64,000 nt of DNA, taken from Raja brachyura (Eukaryota). Below, piece by piece: positions 1,380 to 47,367 of the stretch. Every line of letters starts with the position of its first letter. The stretch's first letter is position 1. Below the pieces are notes generated by a model. The model ran no database searches, was not told the DNA's origin, and saw only the letters and a list, made by a program, of their open reading frames with translations. The position numbers were made by a program, and so were the translations under genes. The stretch lies in NCBI GenBank assembly GCA_963514005.1, contig OY740783.1, positions 128,588,001 to 128,652,000 of the forward strand, in the 5' to 3' direction.

Positions 1380-2410
1380 ACAATAGACAATAGACAATAG
1401 GTGCAGGAGTAGGCCATTCGGCCCTTCGAGCCAGCACCGCCATTCACTGTGATCATGGCTGATCGTCCACAATCAGTACCCCGTTCGTGCCTTCTCCCCA
1501 TATCCCTTGACACCGACATCTTTGCGAGCTCTGTCCAACTCTCTCTTGAAAGCATCCAGAGAATTGGCCTCCACTGCCTTCCGAGGCAGAAAATTCCGCA
1601 AATTCACAACCCTCTGTGTGAAAAAGTTTTTTCTCATTTCCGTTCTAATTGGCGTACCATTTATTCTTAAACTGTGGCACCTGGTTCTGGATTTCCCCAT
1701 CATCGGGAACATGGTCCCTGCCTATAGCGTGTCCAAACCCTTGATAATCTTATCGGTTTCAATATGATACCCTCTCATCCGTCAAATTTCCAGTGTATAC
1801 AAGCCCAGCGGCTCCATTCTATCAACATATGACAGTTCCGTCATCCCGGCGATTAACGTCGTGAACCTATGCTGCCTTCCTCAATAGCTAGAATGTTCTT
1901 CCTCAAATTTGGAGTCCAAAAATGCACATGATACTCCAGGTGTGGTCTCACTATGGACATGAACAACTGCAGAAGGACCTCCTTGCTCCTATACTCAACT
2001 CCTCTAGTGGTGATGGCCAGCATGCCATTCGATTACTTCACTGCCTGCTTTACATGCATGCTTATTCTCCTGTCCCACTTAGGAAACCTGAACGGAAACC
2101 TCTGGAGACTTTGCGCCCCTCCCAAGGTTTCCGTGCGGTTCCCGGAGGTCCCCGGAGGGTTTTGTCAATCTCCCTAATGGTCGAAAGTGGTTTCCGTTTT
2201 AAAAATCGGTATTTTTTTGATCGAAGCCTGTTACGATGCTAGTTGAATGTGGTTGCCGGAGTACACAATGCATGCGTGCTTACTTTCAGTGACTGATGAG
2301 GACGCCCAGATCTCGTTGTAATTCTCATTTTCCCAACTTGACACGATTCAGATTAGAATCTGGCTTCCTGATTTTCCTACCAAAGTGGATAACCTCACAG
2401 TTATCCACAT
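1380..2410 (-). mobile_element. CR1 3' fragment interrupted by a short insertion (~2068-2270, possible MITE)
   Basis: (CAATAGA)n tail, ORF2 C-terminal peptide; duplicate at 28410-29185. Confidence 0.85.
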
Positions 2411-25133: not shown

Positions 25134-26047
25134 TTATTTTACACCAGTTTTATGCGATTTTAATAAACCTATAGTTAGGGTGAAAGGGTATTTGAGTGCC
25201 TGGAGCAGCTGCTCTCTGAACCTCCTCTGGGTCACGGTGTAAATGAGCGTGTTTGTGCAGGTGTTCAACAATTGTAGCATAACTCCAGTTTGTTCAAATG
25301 TTGCAAATGGGCTCCACAACCCTTTGTACCTAAATCCAATCAGAGTTCGATAGACAATGAAATATGCTACAGTTGTGCCCCAGAGCAGTATAAAACTGGT
25401 GGAGATTGCAAGGAGTAAAATTACGGACCGTGTGCGGTTTGCGATCTCGGGGTCCTCACTACTGATATCGCGGAGTTTCCTACGGACACGACTGGCCACT
25501 AAAATGCGCCTGACAGTGAGCACGTTCATCAGCATAATCAAACAAAATGGAATGACTGTGATTAGCAGCTGTTGAGTCCAGGAAAATGCTATCCACGAGG
25601 GCAGGCTATAAAACTGAAATTTCTTTCGGCAACCCCACAGTATACCCTGTTTATCTATGAGATAATAAGTGTACGTAAAAGGCCAGGGAGCGCTCTGTAA
25701 ACAGAAGAACGCAAATAGGATCACTATAACCACCACGGCGGTTCTTTCGGTGCAGTATCTGGTTCTCAGATTCTGAGTGGAAATGGCCACAAAGCGATCA
25801 AATGTGAAAGCGACCGTGAGCCAAACAGAACAGGCTACGGCCGCGGGAGCGAGGAACATAATGAACCTGCACACAGTGTTGTGGAAGAAGAATGTGTCCC
25901 ACCAGTAAAGGTCGGCAATCCGATGTAATATCACTTCGCAGACGATCACTGAGAGGTCCGCCGTCGCCATGGCCACCAGGTACCGAGTGGTGCATTTGGA
26001 GAGACCACAATTTCTCTGCGACAGGATCACAATCGCCATCAAGTTCA
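25134..26047 (-). CDS. GPR139-like orphan class A GPCR paralog A, coding exon 2 (full protein 327 aa)
   Basis: Acceptor ...CTCCCCTAG|TGAAC at 26048/26047; open to TAA. Seven hydrophobic segments; TM2 AMATADL, TM3 C..FTFDRFVAI, ECL2 WGC, TM6 FILLW, TM7 NTCTNTLIY. Family label by recognition. Confidence 0.92.
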
Positions 26048-26775
26048 CTAGGGGAGTAGAAAAGAGGAAACTGTCGTAATATGAAAGCGAAAGGCGATGC
26101 TTATTGGGTGTGGGGGGGGGGGGGGGGGGGGGGGGGTGGGGGGGGGGGGGGGTGAGTGGGCGGTAACCGTCAGCATCAACGGTGCTGAGGTGGAAGTGGA
26201 TGAGGACTTCAAGTTCCTCGGAATTAATATTACCAACGATATCTAATGAACGACCACATACTTAGAAGACTGAGGAACTTTGAGCTGCCTCGAATGCCTC
26301 AAACACGTTGCTACAGATTAGCATATAAAGTATACTGCTGGGTATATCACAGCTTGTTGTGGGGACATCTCTGCCCTATACAAAACTAATCGCAGAGAGT
26401 TCTGGATGAAGCCAGGTCCATATCACGAAGCAGACTACCTGTTGTTGAGATTGGATTGTTTGCATTGGTGTATCATATTATTTGATCTGATTGGAAAAGC
26501 TTTGTAAACCAAAGCTTTTTTGCGGCTCTCAGGGGGTCATGACAATAATGCACCTAAACCGGAATCTGAAGAGAATCAACCTGTACCAGATCCAATTAGC
26601 GACCGTCGAACGATCAAGTATATTAACATGTTCAAGTTAAAAGCCAACCTAGCCTGAAGGACACAGTCGAGCATTCCCGCTTTTCGCACACTATTTTTCA
26701 CGTTACCTTTAACATTGTCTTTCTGAACACAGCATCCTATCTGTCATTCCCACACACAACGTCCCATTGGCTTAC

Positions 26776-26845
26776 CTGGTATTCCGATTGCTGCGAGGAT
26801 TGGATAATAATAATATTCAGCTGTCAACGGCCTTTTCCAACTCAT
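26776..26845 (-). CDS. GPR139-like orphan GPCR paralog A, coding exon 1 (MSWKRPLTAEYYYYPILAAIGIP)
   Basis: ATG at 26845; 70-nt exon ending CCAG|GTAAGC (phase 1); joins in frame to exon 2 as ...IGIP-V-NLMAIVIL, completing TM1. Not in the ORF track because it is short. Confidence 0.9.
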
Positions 26846-26919
26846 TTCTTCTTCAAGGCCGTCCCCAGTTATACAGTGCAAAACTTACAGTAGTCAAAGT
26901 GAGATTTCAAACTTCGCTA

Positions 26920-26927
26920 TATTTATA
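26920..26927 (-). promoter_or_regulatory. Candidate TATA box of GPCR paralog A
   Basis: GGAA-TATAAATA ~75 nt upstream of the ATG; paralog B has GGAA-TATAAGA at a matching distance (43556-43562). Confidence 0.55.
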
Positions 26928-29900
26928 TTCCTAGATGAAAGGACAACGTGCGTTCGCCTCCCAGCGGACATCCATTATGCATCGTTGAACAAATAGATTG
27001 CTCCCATGTGATGCAAAGCGATCAAACTCATTATGCGACCGCTCCTTATTCAAGTAGCAGCTGAGCACCAACAGAACAAAGGAACTGTAAAGTAGGACTG
27101 CAAATTATATTTTTAAATGTAAACCGCTGGCACGAAAATGCAGCAAAATACGTGTCATAGAGCATTCATCCACAGGTGCTGCGATGTAATACAGCATTTT
27201 ATTTATAGTATTTGCAAAGCATTTTCCCGTAAACGACCATTCACTTAACATGCACGCATTGATAATTTGATCCTGGATTTCCCGTGGAGCTCCCTTTCAA
27301 AATAAAAGAGAATCATTCTTGGGCAGCGGTCTACATGATGTAAATCACAGGGAACTTTCTAGACGACGTCTTATACAATTCAGATACAACAGCAGCATTA
27401 ATGTCTCCTCCTTAGGCAGCATGCCACATACATGGTTAGTGTAGAGAAAGCTTGGACTTTGCTTAAGGACTTAGATAGGTGGCGAGAGTGGGCAGGGAAG
27501 TGGCAGATGGAATATGGAGTAGCAAATTGTTGAGTCATGCATTGTGACAAGGTGGATTATTAATTGGTACGAGTGTCAGGGGTTGTGGAGAGAAGGCATG
27601 AGAATGGGGTTAGGTGCAGAGCGAAGGCGCATCCATGATTGATTGACAGAGTAGACTTGATGGGCCGAATGGCCTCATTCTACACCTATCATTTATGACA
27701 TTGTGGCCGCTTATCAATACATGCTGCGATGTGATATCGTATTTGGAACCTTCCTACTGCTCTTCCCAGACACAGTTGTAATCACTTGACATTTAACCAT
27801 TAATAACTTTTTTCTGGATTTGGAGCATCTCTTCAAGGCAAAAGTGAATGGTTCCTGGGCAGCGATCTAAAATATGTAAATCACCAGGAACTGTCTACTT
27901 GTGAGTGAATACAAATCGATTACAGCAGCGGCATGAATATATTTCAACTGTTGGCACTTCATGAAGAAAATTATAAGAAAATATAACGTACAACGTGCTA
28001 AATGACCAGAAATAAATATTGGTAAGGAATGTCCATAAGGTTTTAAGCAATGTTAAGCAACATTAAGCAATGTTTTTGTCAATAAAACAGACAGTCTGTG
28101 ACGTTATTCCAGATATTAGGGCGAAATCATCGGAATTCATTGATAATGCATTGATGTGGAATGACTTACCACAGAATGCCGTGGAAGCCAAGTCGGTGGA
28201 AATTTATGAGGCAGAGATACATAGATTCTTGATTAGTACGAGAGTCAGGGGTTATGGGGAGAACGCACGAGAATGGGATTAGGATGGAGAGATATATCAG
28301 CCGTGATTGAATGGCGGAGTAGACTTGATGCGCCGAATGGGTCACCAAGAGAGAAATTGGGGGATATCTACACATCAATCGAATTTAGTTTCTTTAAAAG
28401 AGTGGATACAGTAGACAATAGACAATAGGTGCAGGAGTACGCCATTCGGCCCTTCGAGCCAGCACCACCATTCACGGTGATCATGGCTCAACGTCCACAA
28501 TCAGTACCCCGTTCGTGCCTTCTCCCCATATCCCTTGACACCGACAACTTTACGAGCTCTGTCCAACTCTCTCTTGAAAGCATCCAGAGAATTGGCCTCC
28601 ACTACCTTCCGTGGCAGAAAATTCCACAAATTAACAACATCTGTGTGAAAAGGTTTTTTCTCATTTCCGTTCTAATTGGCGTACTATTTATTCTTAAACT
28701 GTGGCACCTGGTTCTGGATTTCCCCATCATCGGGAACATGGTCCCTGCATCTAGTGTGTCCAAACCCTTGATAATCTTATCGGTTTTAATATGATCCCCT
28801 CTCATCCGTCAAAATTCCAGTGTATACAAGCCCAGCGGCTCCAGTCTATCAATATATAACAGTTCCGTCATCCCGGGGATTAACGTCGTGAACCTATGCT
28901 GCCTTCCTCAATAGCTAGAATGTTCTTCCTCAAATTTGGAGACCAAAAATGCACATAATACTCCAGGTGTGGTCTCACTAGGGACATGAACAACCGCAGA
29001 AGGACCTCCTTGCTCCTATACTCAACTCCTCTAGTGGTGATGGCCAGCATGTCATTCGATTACTTCAGTGCCTGCTTTACATGCATGTTTATGCCCCTGA
29101 CCCACCTTGGAAACCTGAACGAAACCTATGGAGCCTTGCGCCCCACCCAAAGTTTCCGTGCGGTTCCCGGAGGTTCCCGAACGGCCTCATTCCTGATACG
29201 GAAGTAGCCGAAAATGCAGCTATTCTTCCGTCGTAGGTAGTGTAGTGACCATCCAGTTTTATGAATTTCAGAAGAGCGTTTCGCTGCCGGGAATCGAACA
29301 TGGGCCGCGGCGATGAGAGCGCCGAATAATGACGACCAGACCACCTGAGAACACGTGGAAGCTGCTGCAACAGAGGCGCAGCAATGATGCCACACCAGTG
29401 ATTCAAATTGGGAGTTCGCTTCCAGTAGCTAATCTGGTGGTAAAATATCTGTAAATTGAGGCAGTGCTGGGCAGAGTCAGATTGAACGGCGGAATTCGGC
29501 CATTCAGCCCATCGAGATTACGTCTGCTCTGTTTTCCCTTTCAACTCAATTTGCCTGCTTTCTCCCTGTAACATAGATACACGGAAACATATAAAATAGG
29601 TGCAGGAGTAGGCCTTTCGGCCCTTTGAGCCAGCACCGCCATTCAATATGATCACGGCTGATCATTCTAAATAAGTACCGTTCCTGCTTTCGCTCATATT
29701 ATTTCATTCTCCTAGCCCTGAGAGCTATATCCAACTCTCACTTGAAAACATCCAGTGAATTGACGTGCACAGCATCCTGTGACAGAGAATGCCACAGATT
29801 CACAACTCTCTGCGTGAACACGTTTTTTTCATCATCTCAGTTCTCAAAGGCCTATCCCTTATTCTTAAATTGTGATTCCCGTTTCTGGAGTTCCCCAACG

Positions 29901-30164
29901 TCCGGAACATATATTCTGCATCTAGGCTGTCCAATCGCTTAAGAATTGTACACGTTTCTATAAGATCTATAAGGAGGTGCTGTATTGAAATTGCATTCCC
30001 TCTAAATTGGAGCTGGTATTCGGGATTTTCATCTCAATCTGTTAATCGGTGGATCTTTCGTCCACAGCACGTGGAGAAGAACCGAAAGGAATTTAACAGA
30101 TCGTGCAAATGGATCGAGCTTATACTAATGGTATCTGTCAGTCTTTTCAGATGAATCTTTACTG

Positions 30165-30700
30165 TCTTTTCAGGTGAGGTAGAAGTTCACTTGCAACTCC
30201 AGCAACCTCATCGACTGTATCCGCTGTTCCAGTTGTGGACTCCTGTTTATCGGCGAGACCAAGCGCAGTCTGGGCGATCGTTCCGCTGAACAACTCTGCT
30301 CAATCCGCCTAAACCTACCTGATCTCTCGGTTTCTCAACACTTTAATTCGCATTCTCATTCGCACACTGATCTTACTGTCCTGGGCCTCCCCCATTGTCA
30401 TAATGAGTCCTAGTGCGAATTGAAGCAACAGCACCTCATATTTCGCTTGGGTAGCTTACACTCCAGCGGTATGAACATTGACTTCTCTAACTTCAAACAG
30501 CCCTTGCTTTCCCTCTCTTTCCATCCCCTCCTCCTTCCCAGCTCTCCGACCAGTCTTACTGCCCCCGACAACCTTTTATCTGTGTACCACCCACTCTCCT
30601 GACATGAGTCTGAAGAAAGGTCTCGACTCGAAACGTCACTCATTCCTATTCTACTGAGATGCTGCCTGTCTCGTTTAGTTACTCCAGCATTTTGTGTCTA
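30165..30700 (+). mobile_element. Penelope-like 3' fragment, duplicate copy
   Basis: Same motifs as 12440-12980. Confidence 0.8.
30604..30643 (+). ncRNA. Minimal type I hammerhead ribozyme-like motif
   Basis: ATGAGT-CTGAAGA-A-[AGGTC TC GACTC]-GAAAC-GTC-ACTCAT: core boxes intact, 6-bp stem I, imperfect stem II, palindromic ACGT stem III. Confidence 0.6.
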
Positions 30701-32374
30701 TCACATTGATCAATGTCTGTTCACGGCTATTCAGAACCTTCTTCAACCATGCGGCTGGTATCTAATCTTCCAGTGGACTAACAACGGATGTGTGGGATTG
30801 TTACGATAGAGATGCTCATTAGGTCATGTGACAGGAGAAGAATTGGGCCAATTGGCCCATCAGGTCAACTACGCAATTCAACCAAGCCTGGTCTATCTGT
30901 CTCAACTTACCATATTCTCATGTCTTCTCCCCATAATCCCCGACACCCGTACTAATCAAGAATCTATCTATCTCTGCCTTAAAATATCGATAGACTTGGC
31001 CTCCACGGCTTTCTCTGACAAGGGACTCCACAGATTCACATCGGACGAAATCAATCTATTATTCTCTCCTTCCTAAATAAACTATCCTTTAATTCAGGGA
31101 CTATGGCACTCTCACCAGTGAAGCATCCTTTCCACATTCAATCTATCCCGCAAGCCTTTCATTATTCGGTATGTTTCAATATGCCCCCCCTCTTCCAAAC
31201 TGCAGCGAGTGCAGGCAAAATGCCGTCAAACGCTCGTTGTAAGTTAACCCACTCATTCCTGGGATCTTTCTTGTGAACCTCCTCTGGACCATCCCCTGGA
31301 CCGGCACATCCTTCCACAGACATGGTGCCCAAGGATGTAGAGAGCCCTCAGAGGAGCACATAAATTGTATGGGTGCATTATATTCACGGACAACTAAAGA
31401 TAATAGAGAAAGTGTGTGTTCTGACAGAACAAAGCAGAGAATGTATTTACATTATGATGGATTGGGTAATGTCAGAAATTGGCATGCGTTCATTAAAAAC
31501 AATGAGCAGTCGTGGCAGACGACGTTACGTTGACCATTCTGAATGAGTGGACTAAAGATGTTTCGATAGCTCCTGAGACGTCCCTTGGAGTAGCCCGCGC
31601 TGCGTTGGTCGCCTTGCGTTTGATTTTTTCCAGGATGTCATGTTGAAGATCCAGATGCTCTCTCAGTAATTATAGTTTCAGTGCTGGATCAGAAGGGAAC
31701 AGAAATAGTTCCTATACGGTATACGCAAATATTTATTTGTGCAACGACATGCGAAATAGAAATGACGAAGCAATTTATGAGCAAAAATAGCCAGCATTTA
31801 AAAAATAATCGGGTAAGGAACACCCAGAGAGAGATTTAGTTGTTTGATTGAGAACAAAGTGTGATATTTATTGTGAGAAACGCATCTACTCAGTCAATTG
31901 GAAAGAGTTGAAGTGAGCAGTTGTCTAAAGTTTAGGAAACCTTCCACAAACTTCAGCAGAAAGCTATTTTTCTTTCTGTGCGTTCTTCCAAGCAATATCT
32001 TTAAATTTCTCAATCAGGTCGAGGTACATATCGAGAAGGAATAATTGCACAAACATGAACTCAAATAATGCATGTTCTCTTAATTTCAAACCTGAGATAA
32101 AGATATTGTCAATCATGGTGGTTGAAATTCAAAGTGAAATCTTATTTGTCTTTTGATGATTCTGACAGGACCTTGCATGGCATTTCGTAGAGACGGAACG
32201 AATAATCTGAATATACATATCAAAAATCGACAGGTTGGGCAGCTGAAGAGTTGCTGTCTTACAGTGCCAGAGACCCTTGTTTAATCCTGATCATGGATGC
32301 TGTATGTACCGACTATCTGTACCTTCTCACTCTGACCGCGTGTGTTTTCTCAGGGTACTCCGATTTCCTGCTAC

Positions 32375-33340
32375 ATAGAGACATCAGGTGATATAGTGAT
32401 ACAGCATGCAAACAGACCCTTCAGTCCAACATGCCCACACTGGCCAACATGTCTCCACTACATGAGTCCCACCGGCCCGCGTTTGACCCATATCCTTCAC
32501 ACCTGCTCTATCCAAGTACCCGTCTAACTAAACGTTGGCATAGTCCCTGCATCAACTACAGTTCCTCCTCCCGTAGCTTGTTTCATGCACCCACCATCCT
32601 TTGTGAGAAAAAGTTACCCCTCAGATTCCTATTAAATCGATAATCCTTCACCTTAAACCAATGCCCTCTTGTCCTCGATCCTCCTACTCTGGTAAGTGAA
32701 TCTATGCATCTTCCCGGTCTATTCCTCCCTTGGTTTCATACACCTCTATAAGATGACCATTCATCCTCCTATACTCTATGGAATAGAGTCCTAGCCTACA
32801 TAACAGATAATCTCAGATCACCTAGTCCTGGCAACATACTCCTTAATCTTCTCTGTACCCTTTCCAACTCGACAACATATTTTCTATAACATAGTGCCGA
32901 TAACTGAACACAACTGCAACACGATCTCACAACTTCTATACTCAATACTCTGACTGATGAAGGCCAAAGTGCCAAAAGCCTTTTTGACCACCCTATCTAC
33001 CTGCGACTCCACCTTAAGGAATCATGCACCTGCATTTCGAGATCCCTCTGCTCGGGAACACTCCCCAGAGGCCACGATTCACTATGTAGGTCCCGCCCAT
33101 TTAGCCTTCACAAAATGCAACACCTCACATTCATCTGTATTACATTCCATCAACCTTTCCTCAGCTCAACTGGTTAATCGATCAATATCCTGCTCCAATA
33201 TTTCAACAACTATTTAATTGACTGTAAGACCACCCACTTTTGTGTCATCATCAAACTTGATAATGTTGCCATGTATGTTCTCATCCAAATCATTTATATC
33301 AATAACAAACAATAACGAGCCAAGCACTGAACCCTGGGAA
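32375..33340 (-). mobile_element. Older CR1 3' fragment
   Basis: Decayed RT-to-3' tail similarity. Confidence 0.7.
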
Positions 33341-33619
33341 CCAAGCACCCTGCAGACCTAAGTACTATGAGATTTTTTTTCTGCAGCTTCTGCCCCTCCA
33401 CCCTTCAGAGCCTGTCCACACAAAAGTGTGTTGTGTGGACATGCACTGTAGGCACTATGCCATAATGAACACCAATTTGATAATTTGCAGACTTGACATC
33501 CCATCTACCTGGACATGCGTACATGTATAATTTCCCCATTGATATGTTGATATTGTCTTACATAATATAAAACATGAAAAGATGTAAAATACTCCCTGAC
33601 ACATTTTATCTTCTATTGT

Positions 33620-34231
33620 TAGGAGGCAGCAGTGTCTCCCGGGTTATCATGCAGAGTGCTATCGTCACTTCTGCAACATAACAATAAATCGAGCTATAGC
33701 AATGTCTAGACGGAAGAAAGGTTATGATAGGACTCACACAACAATTCTTTTATTTACGGTCATATGATGTTGCTTTGAAAAATGAAAAGATATATTTGAG
33801 GATGTTGATTTCATTCCTTTTCAGTTTTCTTTTCCCTCTTTCAATTGAGTTCAAGACGCTGAAAAGCCTGAAGCGGGTAAATCACATCAATAGGCAGTTC
33901 CTGATGGTGAAGCAGATGAGCCGGCCCCAAAGAGACTGCTTCGATTCATGACAAGTGAAGATCAACAAACATGGACTTGGGTGTAAAATTGAGGTAGTGA
34001 ATTAGACATTGACTGGGGTGAGCTGCTCCAGCCCCAAGCACCTTGCTAGAATTAACTTACTGTCCATGCAATAAAACAAACTGTGAGAAATCAAGTACAG
34101 GGACAGTAAGATGCTCATGTTAACAGTATGGTGTGCCATGCACAAATTTGTATAAGTGTGTTGACTGCAGAAACTATTATTGCAAAGACTTGGAATCTGA
34201 TGAAGAATATTCAGATGAAGATCAGATGTAA
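33620..34231 (+). mobile_element. Internally deleted DNA-transposon relic, probably Academ
   Basis: GYHAECYRHFC fragment between AG/GT sites; C-terminal IDW...PAPSTLLELTYCPCNKTNC...RCSC*QYGVPCTNLYKCVDCRN plus acidic tail (34028-34231). Confidence 0.6.
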
Positions 34232-35287
34232 TGTAAACAAATAAATTGGGGAAATAAATGACTATATCAAGTTCCATGCATGCACACACACACATACATG
34301 CACACATACATCCACGCCTCCACACACACATCCACGCAGCCCTCGCACAGGTATATATGCACGCATCCATCCACATATATACATCGACACACACATACAT
34401 ACATCCACACACATACATCCACACATTTACATCCACACATCTACAGATACCCGTTTGACAGGTATACACAGACACACACTACAGATACTCAAACAATGCA
34501 ACACTTTTAAGGTTATTTTAGGTTAAAGGTAATAGGCCTCATTTGAAAAGGCATCATGGGGGGGGGGGGGGGTCTCTAACATGAATGTAGGCTCATTGTA
34601 GCTTAAAATGAATACTCATCGAGTAAACATCAGAGAATTCTATTCTTGGTCAGGATGTGACATTTATATCATAAATAAGACTTTTACAGGTCTGTCCCCC
34701 AACCTAGCACTGCCCCAGTTCCACTATGGCCGTGACCCCCACTCTTCCCACTATGGTAGTCAGAGAGGTTCAGTAAACGGGGGAACCCAGGCGATCTGTC
34801 CTGACCCTGTAATTAGGCAGGTTCGTGAGCCCTTAAAACCTGGGACCTCTGCGGCAGTCTCATTCATTTTCCTATTGGCTGGAAGATGCCTTGCAGGTCT
34901 CTACCCCAGCCTGGCACTGCCCAGTCCCACTATGGCCGTGACCCCCACTCTGCCCACTGGCAGTCAGTGGGGTTCAGTAAAGGGAGGAACCCACAGGAAC
35001 TGCCTTCACCAATTAATTAGGCTGGTTCAGGAGCCAGACCTCTGCAGCAGTCTCATTCAAAAAACACACTCACAATAATATTCATTGTATTATTTTTATG
35101 TAATATAATTATACTCAATTATGTATGATTACAGTCATATTTATAAGTCATATATATATATACATTTTTAATGCACTGCAACACGGAAATAGGCTCCCCA
35201 ATGTGTAACATGGATATTGGCCGCTAGAAGGCGCTTACTTTCCCTATCTCATTTTCGAATTAGTTTAATTATTATATGTGCAACTGA
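34183..35287 (+). repeat. Duplicated block homologous to 46093-47417
   Basis: Shared transposon tail, CA-rich tract, two-copy ~200-240-bp internal repeat, AT-rich tract and CTCF motif. Confidence 0.92.
35218..35235 (+). promoter_or_regulatory. CTCF-like motif, paralogous copy
   Basis: TGGCCGCTAGAAGGCGCT at the equivalent position of the duplicated block; 2 substitutions relative to 47350. Confidence 0.5.
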
Positions 35288-36433
35288 TTCGTTTGCTGAA
35301 ATGAAGCCCCCATGAGAAAATAATGATGTATTATTTTATGCACATTGTATCAAGCAGATTTATGTCCTGGGTACTTACATGAACAATCAGATGTGGTTTT
35401 AAAGAAGAAAAGTCTGTTGAGGTGGAACAGTCGAGGACCGGAAACGTAGAGCTATTGGCATTGAGAGCTGAAGGCGTGGGGACTGGATTCAACGGATGGA
35501 CGGTTTGTTGGTAAACCAAGTTATGAAAATATTTCTGAAGAAGCTGGCACGTCACAAATGGACACTGATTTCCATGAATGTCAAAATTGGAACAATCAGC
35601 TGAAGGGACAGTAATTTTGTCCCGAAATTACTTTCGTTATCAGTTTACATTTTGGTAGAAAGCTTATTTCATCATTCTCCATTTTATCTCAATACGTAAC
35701 TAAACAACCAGTAAGTCGTCTACTGGGGAACCCGACAAGAGATGCTCTCGATCCTGAGAAGAAAGCTTTAGAGCTTCTCTCTCTTCGTAGTGCTTACCAT
35801 GAGAACGGTGAAAGATGCTTGCGACGTAATTGCTCAGAACTGTTATGGGTTTTAAACAATAATTCTAGAACGACCACTTTAGTTACTTCGCCCTACGCCT
35901 CGGCAGATCTGCTGCGTCTGCGCTGCATCAATGGAGGTGGAACAATATGCAAAGCGATTCTGGATGTCTGGCAAACCACACAGGCGAACGTACTCACTTT
36001 GCCGCCCTGTATGAATATCACCGACTACATTTGGCTGCATCTGGTGCAGAATTAATAATTTTAATGAAAACCTAAAGGCTCGTTAGTAGCAATGTGGCAT
36101 TACATTCAGTGAAGCGAGATAAGATGGAAGTCCCATTAAAGTAAATATTGCAGCAATAATTTGTTTAAACACATTTGTGTCATGGGCATTTACATACGTA
36201 ATCACGGTCTCAAAGAAAGTAAAGGAATGGAGGATAACACGTTTAGCACGATAACGCTCTGTCTGTTCTCATCGCGTGCTCGAGGCGTTACCGCTGGATT
36301 CAAAGGAAGGTGGAAACAGTTAACAAAGTGCACGGTTCCCCATGACCGCCCTCCCACTGAGCAATTGAACAATGTACCAGTCTCCCGTGTGTCCAATAGG
36401 ACCGGTGTGTCGACGGTAGGAATGAAGATCTGG

Positions 36434-37778
36434 ACTGGACTAAATATGTAATGTGTATCATGCATACTTCCTGTCTGCGCTGTATATTGATTTTAGACAA
36501 AACGGCTGTGATGTTTGGCTATCTTACTCACAGTCGTCCTCCGCTGCGCAGGCCCCGAGGATTTTTCCGATCGATGAAAAATAAGAGAGTTGTGATTGTT
36601 TAAAAAACCTTGATATTCACTCTTCTGACAATCACCGCGATTAAGGTAACGCCCCTTGGGGGGTGGGGGGGGGGGGGGGGGGGGCAGGACTATAAAACCC
36701 GGGATGCTTGGACATGACTCTGTCTCTCGGCAAGATGGCGAGGGAGAGGCCACGACTCTCATTCTGCTGTGAATCAACGGAACTTTGAGTCTGCAATGCA
36801 CTCGAGTAAATTATTTGTTAGCCCTTAATGAAAATGCCATGAGTTTTTTAGCCTGCTTCCCTGTCTGTACTTGAAACTGCAATGATCTATTAGATCCGAC
36901 TGCCTTTAGTTCAAAAGTTCCGCTCATTTCGTGACTTCCGCTTAGTGGACAGGTCGAGTTGATTGCATAATTTTCGGTGAGTGCAGATGTCGAGCAGATT
37001 GCGGAAATGCCGCTGACAGTGGAAGGCCCAAAGTGGAGAGGCTGCGCTGAGTCGAGTGAGTATTCAAGAAAGTTTAGTGTCATATATATGGTGTGAGAGT
37101 CAGTGTGAGTGAGTGTGTGTGTTTGTGAGNNNNNNNNNNNNNNNNNNNNNNNNNNNNNNNNNNNNNNNNNNNNNNNNNNNNNNNNNNNNNNNNNNNNNNN
37201 NNNNNNNNNNNNNNNNNNNNNNNNNNNNNNNNNNNNNNNNNNNNNNNNNNNNNNNNNNNNNNNNNNNNNNNNNNNNNNNNNNNNNNNNNNNNNNTTGAAG
37301 GTGCGTGTGTGATTGTCTCTCTGTGTGCATGTGTGTGTGAGTGAGTATGAGTGAGTGTGTGAGTGAGTGAGTGTGTGCGTGTGCCAATGAGTGTGAGTGT
37401 GTGTGAGAGTTTGTGTGAGAGTTGCTGTGAGAGGTGGAGGGTTGTGAGTGTGTGAGTGTGTGTGAGGAGGAGGTTGTGTGTGCTTGAGTGTGTGTGAGCG
37501 CATGTGTGTGTGTGTGTGAGAGAGAGAGTGCATGTGTGTGTGAGTGAATGTGTGTGTGTGAGTGCATGTGTGTGCGTGTGTGTGGGTCTGTGTGTGTGTG
37601 TCCGTGAATGTGTGTGAGTGCATGTGTGTGAGTGAGTGTGTGTGGTGGAGGCTGTATGTGTATGTGTGTGGTGGAGTGTGTTTGTGTGCGTGTGGTGGAG
37701 GATGTGTGTGTGGTGGATTGTGTGTGTGTGTGGTGGACCGTGTGAACATGGGACACAACGGGTTCCACTTAGTCTAGT
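36434..37778. mobile_element. Non-autonomous element, possibly Helentron/HINE-like, containing a (TG)-rich simple repeat
   Basis: Imperfect ends ACTGGACTAA / TTAGTCTAGT, degenerate subterminal hairpin GGGACACAACGGGTTCC, internal microsatellite and gap; absent from the paralog A flank. Confidence 0.4.
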
Positions 37779-37855
37779 GTTTATATATATATAAACACTA
37801 TATATATAGTAAAGACATACTAATCTACACTCACTAAGGGATTTGTGTTGGTATA

Positions 37856-38763
37856 TTATTTTACACCATGTTTTCTCGATTTGATTAAACTTACAGTTAG
37901 GGTGAAGGGATATTTGAGTGCCTGGAACAGCTGCTCTCTGAACCTCCTCTGGGTCACGGTGTAAATGAGCGTGTTTGTGCAGGTGTTCAACAGTTGCAGA
38001 ACAACCCCAGTCTGTTCAAACATTGCAAAGGGATTCATCAATCCCCTGTACCAATAAACGCTCGCATTTCGATAGAACACGAAATGTGCTACAGTTGTGC
38101 CCCAGAGCAGCATAAAGGTGCTGGATATTGCAAGGAGTAACATAACAGAGCGTCTCCGGTTTCCGATTTCGGCGTCCGCACCATCGCGGAGCTTCCTGCG
38201 GGCCCGACTTGCCACTAAAATACGTCTGACCGTGAGCGCATTCAACAGCACGATCAAACAGAACGGAATCACAGGTGTTATGAGCTGTTCAGCCCAAGAA
38301 AATGCAACCCATGAGGGCAGAGAATAAAAGTGTGACACTATTCGGCAACCCCACTGTATACCCTCATTATCCATATGAAAATTACCATACGTGAAAGGCC
38401 TGGGAACATTTTGTAAACTGAAGAACGCACTTAGGGTCACTATAACTACCGTCGCGGTTTTCTTGGTGCAGTAACTGTTTTTTAGATTTTGCGTGGAAAT
38501 GGCCACAAAGCGATCAAAGGTGAAAGCGACTGTGAACCAAACGGAACAGTCTACTGCCGCAGAAGCGAGATATGAGATGAATCTGCACACATTACTGTAG
38601 AGCAAGAATGTGTCCCACCAATACAGATCGGCTATCCGATGCAATATGACATCCGAGACAATCACCGATATGTCCGCCGTCGCCATGGCGATCAGGTAAC
38701 GAGTAATGCATTCGGAAAGACCGCACCTTCCACGGTAGAGAACAGCAATCGCCGCCAGGTTCA
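37856..38763 (-). CDS. GPR139-like orphan class A GPCR paralog B, coding exon 2 (full protein 325 aa)
   Basis: Acceptor TTTCTTTCCTAG|TGAAC at 38764/38763; open frame with AMATADI, FTFDRFVAI, WGC, FMLLW, NTCTNTLIY; colinear with paralog A. The 4.65-kb intron is filled with LINE fragments. Confidence 0.92.
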
Positions 38764-38904
38764 CTAGGAAAGAAAGCAAGAGGAACATGTGATTAAATGG
38801 ACGGTGAAGTTTGGTGATGAGCGAGTAGTGGGTGCATTCATTTTTTTTGGTCGATTTGCGTCAACAGCGAAGAGGATTCCGTTGGTGGAAAGTTCCTTGT
38901 GGTT

Positions 38905-39420
38905 CAATAGACAATAGGCAATAGACAATAGGTACAGTAGTAGGCCATTCGGCCCTTCGGCCCGCACCGCCATTCAATGTGATCATGGCTGATCATCCCC
39001 AATCAGTACGCCTTTCCTGCCTTCTCCCCATATCCCCTGACTCCACTATCTTTAAGAGCCCTATCTAGCTCTCTCTTGAAAGTATCCAAAGAACCGGCCT
39101 CGATCGCCACCCGAGGCAGAAAATTCCACAGACTCACAACTCTCTGTGAGAAAAAGTGTTCCCTCGTCTCCGTTCCAAATGGCTTACCCCTTATTCGTAA
39201 AGTGTGGTCCCTGGTTCTGGACTCCCCCAACATCCGGAACATGTTTCACCAAGATATCCTCTCATCCTTCTAAAGTCCAGAGTGTACAAGCCCAGCCGCT
39301 CAATTCTCTTAGCATATGACAATCCCGCCATCCCGGGAATTAACCTTGTTAACCTACGTTGCACTCCCTCAACAGCAAGAATGTCCTTCCTCAAATTAGG
39401 GGACCAAAACTGCACACAAT
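38905..39420 (-). mobile_element. CR1 3' fragment
   Basis: CR1 3' tail with CAATAGA/CAATAGG repeats and ORF2 C-terminus. Confidence 0.9.
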
Positions 39421-39424
39421 ATTA

Positions 39425-41210
39425 ATAAGAATAATAGTAAACTTTATTTCGGACTCAAAAAACATCATAAAGTACATATAAAATCTTAGTATATCACTTA
39501 TAAAAGCATTATAAATTATATATTAAAAAATTAAAATCCAGAATAAAAATAATTATCAATATCCTACATCGGGACAACGATACCAGTGTCTCCACAACTG
39601 GGATTCGTAGCGTGTAGTGCTTAACCTTATGTTTGACAAGGCCACTATAATTACATTTTAGAGTCATTTATTCTGCAGATGAATGTATACGTGATTTCAT
39701 AGGTTAGCTTCTAATGTACTGATTCCTGCAGCCACAACCATGTTACTAGCTCTACACCATCTAGGTTTCTTAGCAGTGTTCTCTTGACATCATTATCCTG
39801 CAAACTTGTCTTTCCATAGTTCGACCACAGGTGAGCAGTATAGAGTGGTGTGCAATATGCTCTAAACAGCGACATTTTCACCACATCTGCACACGCACAA
39901 AACTAACGCAAGAGAATATTCGCCTGTACATACAGCATGCGTCGTTGCCTATAAATATCCTCATCATCTGTCCTTTGTTCTGTAATAAAATGCCCTGGAC
40001 ATTGCACCTTATTACAGACACTAAGATTATTGTCAGACGATTTAAAATCAGGACATTTTAGACATTTATCCTCTTTTTTTCTACAGATCATAACAGCACT
40101 CTTACAAGCATTATATTTAATATCATGTTCCAAACCATACACAGCACATATAGTAAGGAGCTGCTGTAGACCAGCGCTAAATGGACTAAAGTCCACAAGA
40201 TCATCTGCATATATAATATGGTTCACTAAAATATTAGCAATCATGCACCTTGTGTTACATGTTTTCAATTCTTTGGACAGATCAACAATAAAAAGATTAA
40301 AAAGGACTGGGGACAAAATTCACCCTTGTCTAACACCATTGCTAACCCCAAATGTGGCTGAGACCCTATTGCCCCGTTTTATTTGCATAGTCTGGTGGGC
40401 ATACCAGTAGACCAGAATTCTCACAATGTATTTAGGCACCCCTCTTTGACTCATTTTAACAAACAGCTTTCTATGATTAACACGATCAAAGGCTTTGGAA
40501 GCATCAATACAGCACATAAGGATTTAAGAGTTTTTGCCTCTATATTTGTTTACAATCTCCTTTAAGGCATATATGCATAAGTCAGTACCATGTTTAGCTT
40601 TAAAACCAAACTGGTTATCTGCGGAGTAAACAAACGCATTTAGTCTATCCAGCAGAACTCTTGCTAAAACTTTTGACAATATGCTGACTAAAGCTATGGG
40701 CCTGTAATTATTTAGGCTACCTACTTTACCAGCTTTCTCCTAAATGACAGGCACTAACAGAACAGGCAACATTGAGTCTGGTAACAACCCATGAATCATT
40801 AAGCCAGTAAAACAAATAGCAAGGAGAGGAGCTATCCTCATACTCGCATACTTACGATGCTCAGCAGAACTATGATCCAAGCCACTTGCTTTGTTGTTGG
40901 ACAGCTTGTTCATGGCATGATACACCTCATGTGACATAATCAACAATGCGTCATTACTCTCCATATTTCCACCTTATACAAGTTACTTTAGACACAATTG
41001 AATAAAGTACCATAATGTTGTTGCTGTAACTCCGCGATATTAGCTGTTCTGGAGATTCCATCTACAGTGCATGGTAGAGATGTTTTGCAACTGTTAAGAG
41101 CTCTCACTTCTTTCCAAAAATCAGTAGCATTGTTACTTAGCAGCTTCTTAGCCATGGAATCAGCCCTCATAGCTTGTTTTTTTAAAGATGAAGCGAATAG
41201 CACACTTATA
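39425..41210 (-). mobile_element. Non-LTR retrotransposon RT fragment (RTEX-like; clade not resolved)
   Basis: DASKAFDRV, GVRQG, IYADD in frameshifted ORFs; AATAAA plus (TTA/TAT)n-like tail near 39425-39450. Confidence 0.75.
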
Positions 41211-41214
41211 CCTT

Positions 41215-42100
41215 GCATTAGTGACCATACCCCAGTTGTGATCTCACGAGTGCCATGTACAACTGCAGAAGGACCTCTTTGCTCCTATACTTGACTCCTC
41301 TTGTTATAAAGGCCAACATGCCATTCGCTTTCTTCATTGCCTGCTGTACCTGCATGCTTACTTTCATCGACCGATGAACAAGGACCCCCTGATCCCGTTG
41401 TACTTTCCCTTTTCCCAACTTGACACCATTTAGATAGTAATCTGTCTTCCTGTTTTTGATACCAAAGTGGATACCCTCACATTTATCCACATTAAACTTC
41501 ATCTGCCATGCATCTGCCCACTCCCCCAACCTGTCCAAGTCATCGTGGATTCTCGTAGCATCCTCCTCACAGTTCACACTACCACCCAGCTTTGTGTCAT
41601 CTGCAAATTTTCTCATGTTACTTTGAATCCCTTCATCTAAATCATTGATGTATATTGTAAATAGCTGCGGTCCCAGCATCGAGCCTTGCGGTACCCCACT
41701 AGTCACTGCCTGCCATTCTGAAAGGGAACCGTTAATCACTACTCTTTGTTTCCCGTCTGCCAACCAATTTTCTATCCATGTCAGCACTATACGATGTGCC
41801 CTAACTTTGCCCACTAATCTCCTATGCGTGACCTTATCAAATGCTTTCTGATGTCCGGGTAAACTACATCCACTGGCTCTCCCTTGTCCATTTACCTAGT
41901 TACATCCTCAAAACATTCCAGAAGATTAGTCAAGCATGATTTCCCCTTCATAAATCTATGCTGACTCGGACCGATTCTGTTACTGCTATCCAAATGAGCG
42001 GCTATTTCATCTTTTATAATTGATTCCAGCATCTTCCCCACCACCGATGTCAGGCTAAGTGGTCTATAATTCCCTGTTTTTTTCTCTCACGCCTTTCTTC
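41215..42100 (-). mobile_element. CR1 RT fragment
   Basis: SGVPQGS..GP, KFADDTKL; homologous to 5800-6660. Confidence 0.9.
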
Positions 42101-42434
42101 ACTGTAGTTTCGGATGCTGCGCTCATGTCAAATCTTTCCACTCGATAGTGAATTGATCACTTGTGCAGTGACCTTTAAAGGAAGCGATATGCGGACAAAA
42201 TCGTAGCCAACGTTGTTCGGGATTCCCCATCCAAGCAGGATTAGATTCCCAGTTCTACAGCTAATCGAGACGGCCGCGCTCACTCTGGAGCGTTTGTCAG
42301 TTAATCACATATTGTTAAATTAGGTCAAATTATTTTTTATTTTTAAAAGAGACGTTTAAACCCATATGATAGCAGATGGACCAATAAAACACATTTGATT
42401 GCAGGAAATGTGCAATAATACTCGATAAATTGGA

Positions 42435-42740
42435 ATTTTAGTTTAGAGATACAACACGGAAACAGGCCCTTCGGCCCACAGTCCGTGCCGACCAGCGATG
42501 CGCGCACATTAACACTTTACTGCACACACTAGGGACAATTTACAATTTTACCAAGCCAATTAACCTACAAACCTGTACGTCTTTGGAGTGTGGGATGAAA
42601 CCGGAACCCGAAGAAAACCCACTAGGCCACGGGGACAAATGTACAAACTCCGTACAGCCAAGTACCCGTAGTCATGATCGAACCCGGGTCTCTGGCGCTG
42701 TAAGGCAGCAACTCTACCGTTGCGCCACCGTGGCGCCACC
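42435..42740 (-). mobile_element. tRNA-derived V-SINE-type SINE
   Basis: A/B-box head GGTGGCGCAACGGTAG...GGTTCGATC, V-domain-like core, CR1-like tail. Related copies at ~14445-14770, 22768-23075, 32255-32370 and 47735-47995. Confidence 0.8.
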
Positions 42741-43416
42741 GTGCCGGAATCTCGCCACAGTCAGGGATCAGCCTAGACGAGATCGTCCGATTAACATGTT
42801 CTGTACATTCTATGCCCCTTTTCCCTATTCTATTTGAAGTTGACAGTCTTTTGTGAATCTACAGTATTATATGTCCGGATTTGATAGCAGGGGAAACAAA
42901 GCTTTTCAGTGTACCTCCGTACACCTAACGATAATAAACCTTACCCTGAGCCAAAATCCAAAAGCTAAACATTGGTTCCAACTATTCGATCCGGCAGAAT
43001 CATTGGATTCATCTCTGTAATTTAATGCGAGAAAGTAAACTTAAAATTGTTCTCAGGTCTCGAGGTATTTTCCACAGTCCGCAGCTAAATAATTAGATCG
43101 GGTTTCCCGGGAACGTTGCAATGCCTTCCAAAACATGGCGTCCGGGAATATAATTCAATATGCGTTCAGGTTGCAACCCAATGTATTCTTTTTAAGCCCA
43201 GCTTGCCACGGCTTTCAAATATTAAAAAGAATAGATATTGAAGAAATGGTTAGAGCAAATTATTAAAGGCTTTAGGTTAACCACGTCCCACCGCCCCACA
43301 CCTGGACGCGGTCCAACAAACTAACTTTCAACACACTTTTCACTATATATTCGATATTGCCCATTTACTGAACGTCACCCTCACACCAATCCCAATACAA
43401 CTTTCCAGTGACATAC

Positions 43417-43486
43417 CAGGCACTCCGATTGCTGCCAGAATCGGGTAATAATAATATTCAACCAACATGTGCCACTTCCAACTCAT
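43417..43486 (-). CDS. GPR139-like GPCR paralog B, coding exon 1 (MSWKWHMLVEYYYYPILAAIGVP)
   Basis: ATG at 43486; 70 nt; donor CCTG|GTATGT; same length and phase as paralog A exon 1. Confidence 0.9.
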
Positions 43487-43555
43487 TTCTCCTGCAATGC
43501 GACCTCAGCAAGGCAGTACGACGCTCACAATAATTTGGAAAGCTCAAACCCGGTG

Positions 43556-43562
43556 TCTTATA
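43556..43562 (-). promoter_or_regulatory. Candidate TATA box of GPCR paralog B
   Basis: GGAATATAAGA ~70 nt upstream of the ATG; positionally conserved with paralog A. Confidence 0.45.
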
Positions 43563-45369
43563 TTCCAAGGAAAAATCGTAGCTGAAAATTAGATCACCTC
43601 CCGGGACATGGCATTACCTAATTTAATCCCATGTGAAAATGTTACTCGCTGGTGCCGCTTTTCCACATCCACCATCCGAGCACCTACAGAAAAACAAGAC
43701 TGTAAAACACCAATCAGCTACGATTAAATATTTTATTTGCAACCATTGTCTGCAGTGCCCATGCATGGTTTAATTTCCACCACATGCTAATACTTTTTTT
43801 ATCGCGGATTACTCCAGAAGCTGCTGCGAAAAATAAAATAAAACATTACTTGTGCAGATTTCTAATAGGCTGTGGGCAGAGGAGCTTTTTTGTACAGTTT
43901 CGTGACCCAACTCACGGAACTGCATGAAATTTTCACATATTGTAAAAATATCATATAAATCAGCCCTGAAACCTGTCAAGAACAAAACTTGCACTTTTTA
44001 AAATTAAATTATAGAAAAATCTGATTTTTTTCTAGTATTTTTGGCCATTCAAAGCACGCTTGACATGGAGTCGGACGCCGGTTGGCCAAACACGCGCTTA
44101 GTTTCAGGCTAGCTCGGCAGAGGATTTCATTGATGCCTGTTTTACTGGAGAATCCGATGAAGGTTCTTTGTTGTTCTGCGGAATACATGTCGTGGAAACT
44201 TGCAGCAGGGTAATTGAATTTAGTGAGAAAAGCATTAAGAAGTCTGAAGAATGTGCAGCTAAGTGGATAGAAGTGGAACAAAGCCTTGAAAGCAAAGTCG
44301 CTGCTAAGGTGCTGCAACACAAAGTCGTGAAACCAGTGAAACATTGTACAAAGGTGCACAAAGGTACAAAGTACAGTTATTATCACATACACCAATTTGT
44401 GTCGTCAAATTTGACTTGCCATGCAGCACACAGATAAAGATAAGACACAACATTAAAGAATTTAACAATAAACATAAAACATACCCCACAATGGTTCCCA
44501 CTGTGAGGGAAGGCACAAAGACCAGTCCCATCCCCATGTGCACCCATAGTCGGGCCTATTGAGGCCTCTGCAGTCGCTGGTGCGGGGCCCGATGTTCCAG
44601 GCATTTCTCGCCGGGTGATGGTGCTCCGGCGTCGGGAGAATCCTCTCAGCTGCTTGGGCCACCTGGAACGGCCGCTTCCTTACTGGATTCCGCGGCTTCG
44701 GAAGCCGACAGGCCGCGCTGGATGGTGCTCCACCACTGGGATGGAAGCTCCCGATGTAATGTTCAGCGCCGCCGCCCGTAGCTGGCCGCTCCACAGTCCC
44801 GCAGCTCCTGTTTTTGTTTGGTTTTTTTGTCGGCCGTCTTCAGCACACCGGAGTTGAAGCGCGGCGACCCAGGCAAGGCATCGCCTGATCCGATCCGCGA
44901 TAGCGCTCCAGCGCTGCGCCCCCGCCGAAGCCCCGGTTCTAGCTGGTCCCATCAGGAAACACCGCTCCAGGCCCTCTGGTAGGCCGCGAGGACGGGTTGA
45001 AGATGCAGCCCGGAGAAAATCTGCCTCTCCGAGCAGGTAGGGACCAGGAAAAGCAGTTTCCTCTCTCCCCCCCCCCCCCCCCCACCCCCCCACCCCGCCC
45101 CCGCCCCCCACATAAAAAAGAATGCACACGAAACAAAACACTTTTTACACACTAAAAATAAAAGAAATAAGTTAAAAGACAGACAGCTATAATTGTATTA
45201 TATAAAACAATGTATCATACCCAACTGGACGGCGCAATGATTCATTGTGAATCAAATGGAACTGAAAGGTAAGATCTAAAGTCTGAATTTATGAAAATTA
45301 ATCTGTATGGACTTTAACTAATTTAATTGCACCCTTTTATAATGCGAAACAATGAGATTTGGAGGCTGT

Positions 45370-45475: not shown

Positions 45476-46398
45476 AGTTGAGGGCCTAAACTATGTGTAT
45501 ACTTAACAAAGTAAAATGAACATAAACTAATGCCAGCTTATTGAAGTCTAATAAGTTTTCTTGAACATCTATTATCGGTGCTGCCTGCGATAACTTACCT
45601 GGAAAAAGTGCTCCGACCACGGGGCTTATGGGCCTATGGGCCTATGTACTTAACATAGTGAAGCCACGGTCTCAATTAAGAACCGGCCGATTCGCGAACG
45701 CGGAGCCGCGGAGTGTGTTTGCATCATCTCCGCGGAAGGGGGGGGGGGGGGGGGGGGGGGGAGAGAACATAGTGCCGTCCGTAGCGGCCGTTTCCAGACC
45801 CCGGGAGAATACGGAGGAATATTCACTGCACTTTATAGGCTTCCACTGGAGTGATAAATGGGCAGAAATAGCTGATGCTTATGTAGATATGAATTGGTGT
45901 ATGTTAACTTGAACTTGAACTAATCTATCTATGGTAGTAACAGTGTTATTCTCATTAACATTAAGAAGAGGTGAAATTTTATGATTTTTTCCATGGAGAC
46001 TTAATGCCTATGAGATTTTTTCTGTAGCCTCTGACTGACCCTCTACTTGAACTTGAACTGGAACTCTTATCAATGGACATCAAAGCTTATCAAAAGACTT
46101 GGACTCTGATGAAGACTATTCAGATGAAGATCAGATGTTGTGTAAACAAATACATTTGGGAAATAAATGATTATATAAAGTTTTATTTTAATGTCGATCG
46201 TTTCACTGTTTATTTGGTCAAATTATTTAAACAATAAGTGAATTACCTATGCTAATGGCGTGCTGGTAAATGACAGTGCGACAGTCCACCCACCCATCCA
46301 CACTGACATATATATATACATACATACATACATACACATACACATCCATCCATACGCACACCTGCATGCATGCACACACACAACATGCACACATACAT

Positions 46399-46438
<40 letters not shown>

Positions 46439-47349: not shown

Positions 47350-47367
47350 TGGCCACTAGATGGCGCT
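47350..47367 (+). promoter_or_regulatory. CTCF-binding motif (strong)
   Basis: TGGCCACTAGATGGCGCT matches the CTCF core consensus closely. Confidence 0.7.

Follow-up and report, generated by a model that had tools for sequence, protein, structure and literature searches.

Two intact orphan receptor genes of Raja brachyura belong to a large, apparently undescribed receptor family of cartilaginous fish

Introduction

What are the two receptor genes that stand side by side in a repeat-rich stretch of a skate genome, and why are there two of them? The stretch, referred to here as the window, comprises 64,000 nucleotides of Raja brachyura (assembly GCA_963514005.1, contig OY740783.1, positions 128,588,001 to 128,652,000 of the forward strand). 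Genes A and B, both on its minus strand, encode class A (rhodopsin-like) G protein-coupled receptors (GPCRs). An original prediction, made from the letters alone, described them as members of a tandem array of GPR139-like receptors that had expanded in one lineage and diverged mainly in the extracellular loops. The analysis below points to a large, apparently undescribed chondrichthyan receptor family that derives from a sister orphan lineage and, as judged from its sequences, is under diversifying selection.

GPR139 and GPR142 are receptors for L-Trp and L-Phe (PDB 7VUG, 9M42) and are related to the protostome MIP receptors (PMC8514136). Like the family described here, they belong to the same broad branch as the protostome MIP/sex-peptide and FMRFamide receptors. 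Published work is cited throughout by PMC accession.

Structure of genes A and B and of their array

Genes A and B are intact two-exon genes of 325 and 327 amino acids, respectively, with the same exon layout, as had been predicted (Table 1). The phase-1 intron of both falls within the first transmembrane helix (TM1). Seven transmembrane helices and a helix 8 are present, which places the products in class A. In a Pfam scan, both genes matched 7tm_1 (PF00001) only, at 67.6 and 56.5 bits against a cut-off of 30.5, and neither matched the OR or V1R families. The AlphaFold model of gene B exon 2, built on a 112-row alignment, has a pLDDT of 91.7 and a class A fold; its closest folds are peptide and chemokine receptors, at a structural similarity (TM) score of about 0.7. 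Read coverage from four runs of unrecorded kind was alike over the exons, intron and flanks of gene B, with no joint between exons 1 and 2, and is uninformative on expression.

The two proteins are 71.7% identical. They differ at 22 of 40 loop positions, 9 of 34 pocket positions, 16 of 53 outer transmembrane positions and 36 of 161 positions on the inner side; by these counts, the divergence does lie mainly in the loops. The motifs first quoted for the pair, EYYYYP, NTLIY (NTxxY) and the strings of the second and third extracellular loops (ECL2 and ECL3), all occur in the translations. EYYYYP is the version that the window's subfamily has of a YYP..A..G.P start of TM1, common to the whole family. 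The loss of P7.50 does not set genes A and B apart from GPR139, which carries F at this position.

Only two copies lie within the window, where tblastn found no third. The tandem array becomes apparent on a larger scale: 12 copies, genes A and B among them, span 356 kb, and all 12 matches are free of stops. The ATG of the third copy lies about 150 bases to the left of the window, and its protein is 94% identical to that of gene B. The upstream flank of this left neighbor resembles that of gene B, which reads as a sign that gene B's unit was recently duplicated in tandem, and the likeness of the two 3' flanks reads as a remnant of the older A/B duplication. These flank similarities point to tandem duplication of gene plus promoter.

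Size, intactness and range of the family

A codon-pattern scan of the 2.70 Gb genome gave 997 matches to the TM3 motif (control, 0) and 1,142 matches to the TM7 motif (control, 13). Among the TM3 matches on contigs C1 to C10, 71 of 86 carry the TM7 motif as well, and this overlap puts the family total near 1,330 to 1,370 loci. The first 100 TM3 matches, made up of 98 retrieved loci and the two window genes, are all true family members. Exon 2 is open in 84 of them (80 distinct sequences), and the first exon was located for 80 of the 100. These copies come from C1 to C14, needed an intact motif for inclusion and possibly include some assembly duplicates; read with those limits, they suggest roughly 1,000 to 1,100 potentially intact family genes in the genome. 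A protein search of the genome returned 2,562 first-look candidates, of which 132 were scored: all matched, 127 of them without a stop. Across 96 genes compared, the median pairwise protein identity is 50%, and 15 pairs are more than 98.5% identical, several of them 100%. The predicted lineage expansion thus holds, with about 1,000 or more loci in place of a few paralogs.

In protein databases, 1,243 homologue clusters were found. Among the 120 listed, the 119 that are named all come from sharks, rays or a chimaera; nearly all of these are labelled 'probable GPR139', and the closest are skates. A Callorhinchus protein clusters with genes A and B (support 96/98), from which the subfamilies would be older than the split between chimaeras and elasmobranchs, as far as one sequence can tell. 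No published description of a chondrichthyan expansion was found in a literature search that had most subscription journals outside its reach. The word 'GPR' is absent from the available main text of PMC11979771 and PMC10620051. PMC8455134 describes GPCRs as relatively scarce in cartilaginous fish, and no family match was found in 12 of its 24 supplementary files.

Relationship to GPR139, GPR142 and other orphan receptors

The genome has a true GPR139 orthologue elsewhere, and it is conserved, at 84% identity to the human protein, whereas genes A and B share 19-20% identity with GPR139. In a tree of 45 rows (LG+G4), the 20 family rows form one clade (97/90), with a salamander gene as its sister (100/98). 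The two together then join two further orphan lineages, labelled L132 and L133 (100/98), and GPR139/GPR142 stand apart (100/100). A joint clade of the family with GPR139/GPR142 is rejected (approximately unbiased test, p-AU 0.0006), as is one with GPR139 alone (5e-5). The salamander branch is long and its placement less sure: the alternative is rejected at only p 0.018, in a test named after the tree had been seen.

The GPR139 ligand residues F3x33, H5x43, W6x48 and N7x38 (PMC5430874) are P, Q, W and V in gene B and S, E, W and V in gene A, so that one of four, W6x48, is kept. Family and GPR139/GPR142 have in common the lack of P7.50, W6.48 and a phase-1 intron acceptor in TM1, which in the GPR139 orthologue lies at the same place as the intron of gene B. 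The family differs in its predicted disulfide between TM3 and ECL2 and its long ECL2, neither of which is seen in GPR139 in the alignment, in P6.50, which is mostly T, in its lost ligand residues and separate clade, and in having about 1,000 copies against one. Among solved structures, human GPR139 gives the best match by sequence (E 3e-6), and an Atlas look-up with a skate homologue as query returned GPR139-named and Srw/FMRFamide-like clusters only. A reading of genes A and B as duplicates of GPR139 or GPR142 nevertheless fails on the rejected joint clade, the separate orthologue and the low identity. Aromatic amino-acid sensing cannot be transferred to the family, because it belongs to a sister lineage of orphans that are unannotated in mammals. 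Membership in the canonical olfactory families (OR, V1R/ORA, V2R, TAAR) was likewise ruled out by the PF00001-only matches and the position in the tree beside the relatives of GPR139/GPR142.

Other orphan relatives were found by a representative search and look-ups in coelacanth, teleosts, salamanders and reptiles. The L132 lineage includes coelacanth, fish, amphibians, reptiles and sharks, and the L133 lineage includes anchovy and the R. brachyura genome. In this genome (G000), each lineage has one strong match (L132, G000:C24:30967807-30968757; L133, G000:C5:119208728-119209621). Both appear to be conserved, single-copy orphan paralogs that databases mislabel as GPR139. No bird or mammal is present among the 120 entries listed for the L132 lineage, some of which carry fused TMEM183A names, a hint of linkage. 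No closer relative outside the chondrichthyans was found than the salamander gene (P0236 / P0386 / P0389), which is highly conserved.

Rinne et al. 2019 (PMC6504862) describe three orphan subtypes beside GPR139/142, including GPR210A/B; the words 'shark' and 'cartilaginous' do not occur, and no expansion is reported, in the available text of that paper. The L132, L133 and salamander lineages probably correspond to the GPR210 subtypes. The family groups with these non-mammalian orphan lineages beside GPR139/142 and resembles them in its short N-terminus and YP.L...G.P start. The L132 and L133 genes have one match each and keep R6.51, whereas the family has multiplied and its pocket has varied.

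Conservation and selection

A further 76 loci were retrieved from protein matches (exon 2 was not located in 5 of these), and 155 open copies were compared. In these, D2.50, DR3.50, N5.58, F6.44, N7.49 and Y7.53 are 100% conserved and W6.48 is kept in 99%, and the class A hallmarks N1.50, D2.50, DRx3.50, P5.50, W6.48, N7.49/Y7.53 and C3.25-C45.50 stand at 95-100%. P6.50 is replaced by T in 75% of the copies and P7.50 in 97%. Mean entropy is 2.3 bits in the pocket and loops, compared with 1.0 on the inside. Every GPR139 and GPR142 examined, like both single-copy paralogs, has R at position 6.51; the salamander gene has K there, and in the family the position is hypervariable.

Selection was modelled with GY94 site mixtures in our own codon code, the M0 likelihood of which equals that of IQ-TREE. 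Sixteen broken copies were excluded from the selection and promoter sets, and near-identical copies were removed from the codon sets. The ratio of non-synonymous to synonymous change (dN/dS) under M0 is 0.46 in the window's subfamily (22 genes). There, twice the log-likelihood difference (2dL) between M1a and M2a is 35, or 11.7 with synonymous-rate variation; in a second subfamily (37 genes) it is 305, or 62 with rate variation, these being grid tests without exact degrees of freedom. In the window's subfamily, dN/dS is 1.4 in the loops (1.2-1.55), 0.45 in the pocket and 0.25 on the inner side, and 5 of 8 selected sites fall in loops. In the second subfamily, the values are 1.6 in the pocket, 1.25 in the loops and 0.25 on the inner side, and 22 of 24 selected sites lie in pocket or loops (Fisher p 6e-13), including 2.61, 2.65, 3.29, 3.32, 3.33, 45.51, 45.52, 6.51, 7.32, 7.35, 7.36 and 7.39. 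The signal of the second subfamily remains when each third of the gene is fitted on its own tree. The excess of non-synonymous change sought by site models is therefore present, in the loops of one subfamily and in the pocket and loops of the other.

Proximal promoters

For 126 of the 155 open genes, exon 1 and 400 bp upstream were available; the other 29 lacked a confident exon 1 or the 400 bp. The 126 upstream regions form 45 mutually unalignable groups, and one region per group was scored against dinucleotide shuffles. TATAA occurs in 34 of the 45 groups (4.3 in shuffles), an O/E (EBF)-like word with at most one mismatch in 12 (1.0; 1 group further upstream and 1 in introns), the homeodomain word TAATKR in 37 (17.2, maximum 25), the forkhead-like TRTTTGYT in 19 (2.3) and the E-box in 8 (4.5). 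Words typed as octamer (0), interferon-stimulated response element (ISRE; 0), ETS (1) and kB (1) are not enriched in the 45 groups. O/E-like sites are most frequent at 20-30 bp ahead of TATA, and forkhead-like words at 70-80 bp ahead of it. With matrices trained on half of the groups and cross-validated, O/E sites exceed the 95% background in 10 of 45 groups and forkhead-like sites in 13. A homeodomain word lies near an O/E-like site in 8 groups, against 0.76.

Both window genes have a predicted proximal promoter of this type (Table 1), that of gene A without a forkhead-like word. Mouse OR promoters contain O/E, homeodomain and TBP motifs (PMC12547500), and V1R promoters share O/E-like sites (PMC3247230). 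The Greek Island Lhx2/Ebf composite with fixed spacing was also considered and, judged by spacing, set aside: offsets in the family range from 5 to 12, and a fixed homeodomain-O/E offset of 7 was found in 0 and 2 of the 45 groups. As for the choice between the chemosensory and immune roles first suggested for these genes, the promoter words lean toward the chemosensory one.

Possible role of the family

The family may be a combinatorial chemoreceptor repertoire for molecules from outside the body, likely expressed in olfactory sensory neurons; we give this reading an even chance. Ligands would differ from copy to copy and would bind in a peptide-receptor-like pocket that has a disulfide between TM3 and ECL2; the G-protein output would be common to all copies. 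Gene and promoter would form a compact unit whose duplication, tandem or segmental, yields new copies; selection would retune the pocket, and some copies would die. One sensory cell class would express the family from a proximal promoter of TATA, O/E (EBF)-like, homeodomain and forkhead-like words.

The family has features of an olfactory-type receptor repertoire, being large and clustered, subject to birth and death, and diversified on its ligand face. It resembles the vertebrate chemoreceptor expansions (OR, TAAR, V1R/ORA) in its compact genes, short N-terminus, tandem arrays on many chromosomes and pocket-focused selection. Its proximal promoters are also enriched in O/E-like and homeodomain words, although such words do not point to one tissue. 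It differs in its receptor lineage, its intron-split coding region and its non-rigid homeodomain-O/E spacing. The vomeronasal formyl-peptide receptors (FPRs) of rodents are another vertebrate chemoreceptor expansion. Within the broad branch, invertebrate members carry Srw Pfam hits, and the chemosensory role of Srw receptors is a precedent for recruitment of this branch to chemosensation. The Srw-type and Aplysia rhinophore candidate chemoreceptors (PMC2700072) are invertebrate and independent; genes A and B match 7tm_1 only.

A wider proposal is that smell in sharks, rays and chimaeras depends mainly on an unrecognized fifth family, at least about a thousand genes strong, which was built from a GPR139-related orphan and fills the majority of olfactory neurons left without a known receptor; this we offer tentatively, with somewhat more doubt than belief. 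Cartilaginous fish have 20-62 known olfactory receptor genes (PMC10869828). In this genome, 3 V1R/ORA matches (L252-L254) and about 15 V2R-type large exons (V2R stretches L255-L268) were found, which fits the small published repertoires. In the catshark, 5.94 cells per mm express v2r1 (the V2R co-receptor), 2.76 taar1a and 0.45 ora2, in a nearly continuous neuron layer (PMC10116579). If there are about 100 neurons per mm, about nine in ten catshark olfactory neurons would be without a known receptor. This gap, like the promoter words, speaks for an olfactory role, though the sensitivity of in situ detection could account for it in part. In the same paper, large noses are explained as favoring sensitivity over discrimination.

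Several observations weigh against an olfactory repertoire. The catshark's olfactory neurons are reported to be all TRPC2/Go microvillous and its nose V2R-dominated (PMC10116579), and no GPCR is among the 50 genes most specific to a catshark brain-plus-olfactory library (PMC11979771). The homeodomain/Ebf composite of mouse enhancers is sensitive to spacing (PMC5608512), and that of the family is loose, at 5 to 12 bp. A good O/E site is present in only 12 of 45 promoter groups, and on 72 non-independent promoters there was no homeodomain excess (40 against 33.8), the excess appearing only in a narrower stretch of the 45 groups. A control on V2R promoters of the same genome, for which 9 of 14 V2R stretches yielded an exon 1, was weak: O/E sites exceed the 95% background in 2 of the 9 (p 0.054) and forkhead-like sites in 1 (p 0.017), and none of the 3 V1R/ORA upstream regions has an O/E site. 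Because all family promoters share one ancestor, their common words speak for conservation and not for a tissue. EBF is not specific to the nose and is also active in B cells and other neurons. As for selection, the transmembrane pocket of the window's subfamily is without positive selection, the signal of that subfamily is modest under rate variation (2dL 2.6, 9.1 and 4.8 per third), and the A/B pair alone has a loop dN of 0.38 against a dS of 0.47. The fits control gene conversion and multi-base changes only partly, and the pocket list consists of generic class A positions, drawn up after the first site list had been seen. One of these points is softened by the rodent V1Rs and FPRs, which are located in TRPC2 neurons: TRPC2/Go positivity does not exclude class A receptors. 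Separately, several V2R upstream regions of this genome carry O/E-like words.

It is also conceivable, though doubtful, that the receptors are non-olfactory chemoreceptors of solitary chemosensory cells, taste buds, gut endocrine cells or skin sensory neurons, like the MRGPR and T2R expansions. Family size and the selection data would fit equally, and GPR142, a relative, is a gut and islet nutrient sensor. The forkhead-like word, present in 19 of 45 groups, is absent from the OR promoter motifs in the available text of PMC12547500. The enriched homeodomain and O/E words, however, are the pair known from OR promoters, and about 1,000 genes exceed taste repertoires, in which T1R and T2R together average 4.1 genes in cartilaginous fish and 109 in amphibians (PMC10869828).

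It is unlikely that the family serves innate immunity, with leukocytes using it to detect microbial peptides or chemoattractants as they do with formyl-peptide or chemokine receptors. Positive selection on the ligand face would be compatible with an arms race, the modelled fold is nearest to peptide and chemokine receptors, and EBF is a B-cell factor. Only 12 kb separate gene A from an immunoglobulin heavy chain (IgH) exon, and family arrays on C9 and C15 contain some of the other IgH copies. Against this, the octamer, ETS, ISRE and kB words are not enriched, the IgH copy in the window stands by itself, with its upstream C exon interrupted by a stop, and none of the 268 retrieved loci has an Ig exon match. 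Linkage of the family to the main IgH clusters (C2 150-151 Mb, C3 5.2-6.3 Mb) was rejected, as the complete motif lists contain no TM3 or TM7 match there.

Largely neutral amplification in duplication-prone, repeat-rich regions, with most copies silent passengers or assembly duplicates, is very improbable. Many arrays lie close to contig ends, some copies are on small unplaced contigs, and the 15 near-identical pairs would fit. At the protein level this explanation is already largely refuted by the 84 open copies in 100 at a median identity of 50%, and by an inner-side dN/dS of 0.25 with invariant signalling motifs. Promoter words also persist where flanks are unalignable, and a chimaera gene falls within the window's subfamily. 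It is scarcely credible that the genes are genuine duplicates of GPR139 and respond in the brain to L-Trp/L-Phe or to opioid-type peptides: the best solved-structure match, the NCBI naming and the shared TM1 acceptor favor it, but the joint clade is rejected, identity is 19-20% against 84% for the orthologue, and F3x33, H5x43 and N7x38 are replaced.

Other features of the window

Coding sequence around the two genes had been called decayed. Coding remnants do exist, but they are ordinary: retroelements and a stray, partly broken IgH copy (Table 1). Near this copy, no V exon or recombination signal sequence was found, and it is likely a pseudogene. It is 80-90% identical to 24 copies elsewhere, chiefly on C2 and C3. 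To the right of the window (G000:C3 128.65-128.89 Mb), the loci L044/L047/L050, L045/L048 and L046/L049 are near-identical (99.7-100%) and occur in both orientations; they are either very recent segmental duplications or assembly duplicates. About 25 single Ig C1-type exon matches, at 32-41% identity to the IgH exon, follow one another in tandem on C30 (G000:C30 11.88-12.92 Mb); to judge by sequence, they form a separate Ig-domain gene array, possibly of major histocompatibility complex (MHC) class I.

Table 1. Features of the window, in window coordinates
Feature	Position	Strand	Remarks
Upstream flank of left-neighbor copy	1..2154		91% identical to 26994-29179
Retroelement fragments	7673-10535	-	Reverse transcriptase and integrase-SAM-like matches; probably what is left of a DIRS-type tyrosine-recombinase retroelement (class name inferred)
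Long interspersed nuclear element (LINE), near-complete	16664-22235	+	A+T-rich, between gene B and its left neighbor; 389-aa ORF1-like frame; endonuclease/reverse transcriptase frame interrupted by a single stop (824 + 465 aa)
Gene B 3' flank	23803..24863		75-78% identical to gene A 3' flank 35343-36324
Gene B exon 2	25134..26047	-	Mid-TM1 to stop codon, open frame; Pfam 7tm_1 E 1.5e-18
Gene B intron	26048..26775	-	728 nt, phase 1, GT..AG
Gene B coding exon 1	26776..26845	-	23 codons + 1 base
Gene B predicted proximal promoter	26917..27011	-	TATA word 26917-26927
Gene B promoter words	26959-26968 and 27002-27011; 26970-26979; 26986-26995	-	O/E-like (two); TAATGG homeodomain-type; forkhead-like
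Repeated 1-kb block	34275-35285 and 46392-47417		80% identity between copies; internal 150-180 bp duplication; each copy adjoins CA-rich satellite
Gene A exon 2	37856..38763	-	Open frame; Pfam 7tm_1 E 3.8e-15
Gene A intron	38764..43416	-	4,653 nt, phase 1, GT..AG; contains reverse transcriptase fragments
Gene A coding exon 1	43417..43486	-	
Gene A predicted proximal promoter	43553..43636	-	TATA word 43553-43562
Gene A promoter words	43584-43592 and 43610-43618; 43597-43606 and 43627-43636	-	Homeodomain-type (two); O/E-like (two)
Stray IgH copy	52533-52748 and 55706-56086	+	Last C exon with secretory tail, most mu-like; in-frame stop in upstream C exon

Implications

With about 1,000 open receptors of diversified pocket, a single genome exceeds the known olfactory receptor count of cartilaginous fish some twentyfold. 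In whatever tissue these receptors may act, they make up a very large, unexamined vertebrate receptor repertoire, concealed in databases under the name 'probable GPR139'. If the family is olfactory, a peptide-receptor lineage would have been recruited to smell independently, and the view that cartilaginous fish have the smallest olfactory repertoire among vertebrates would be overturned.

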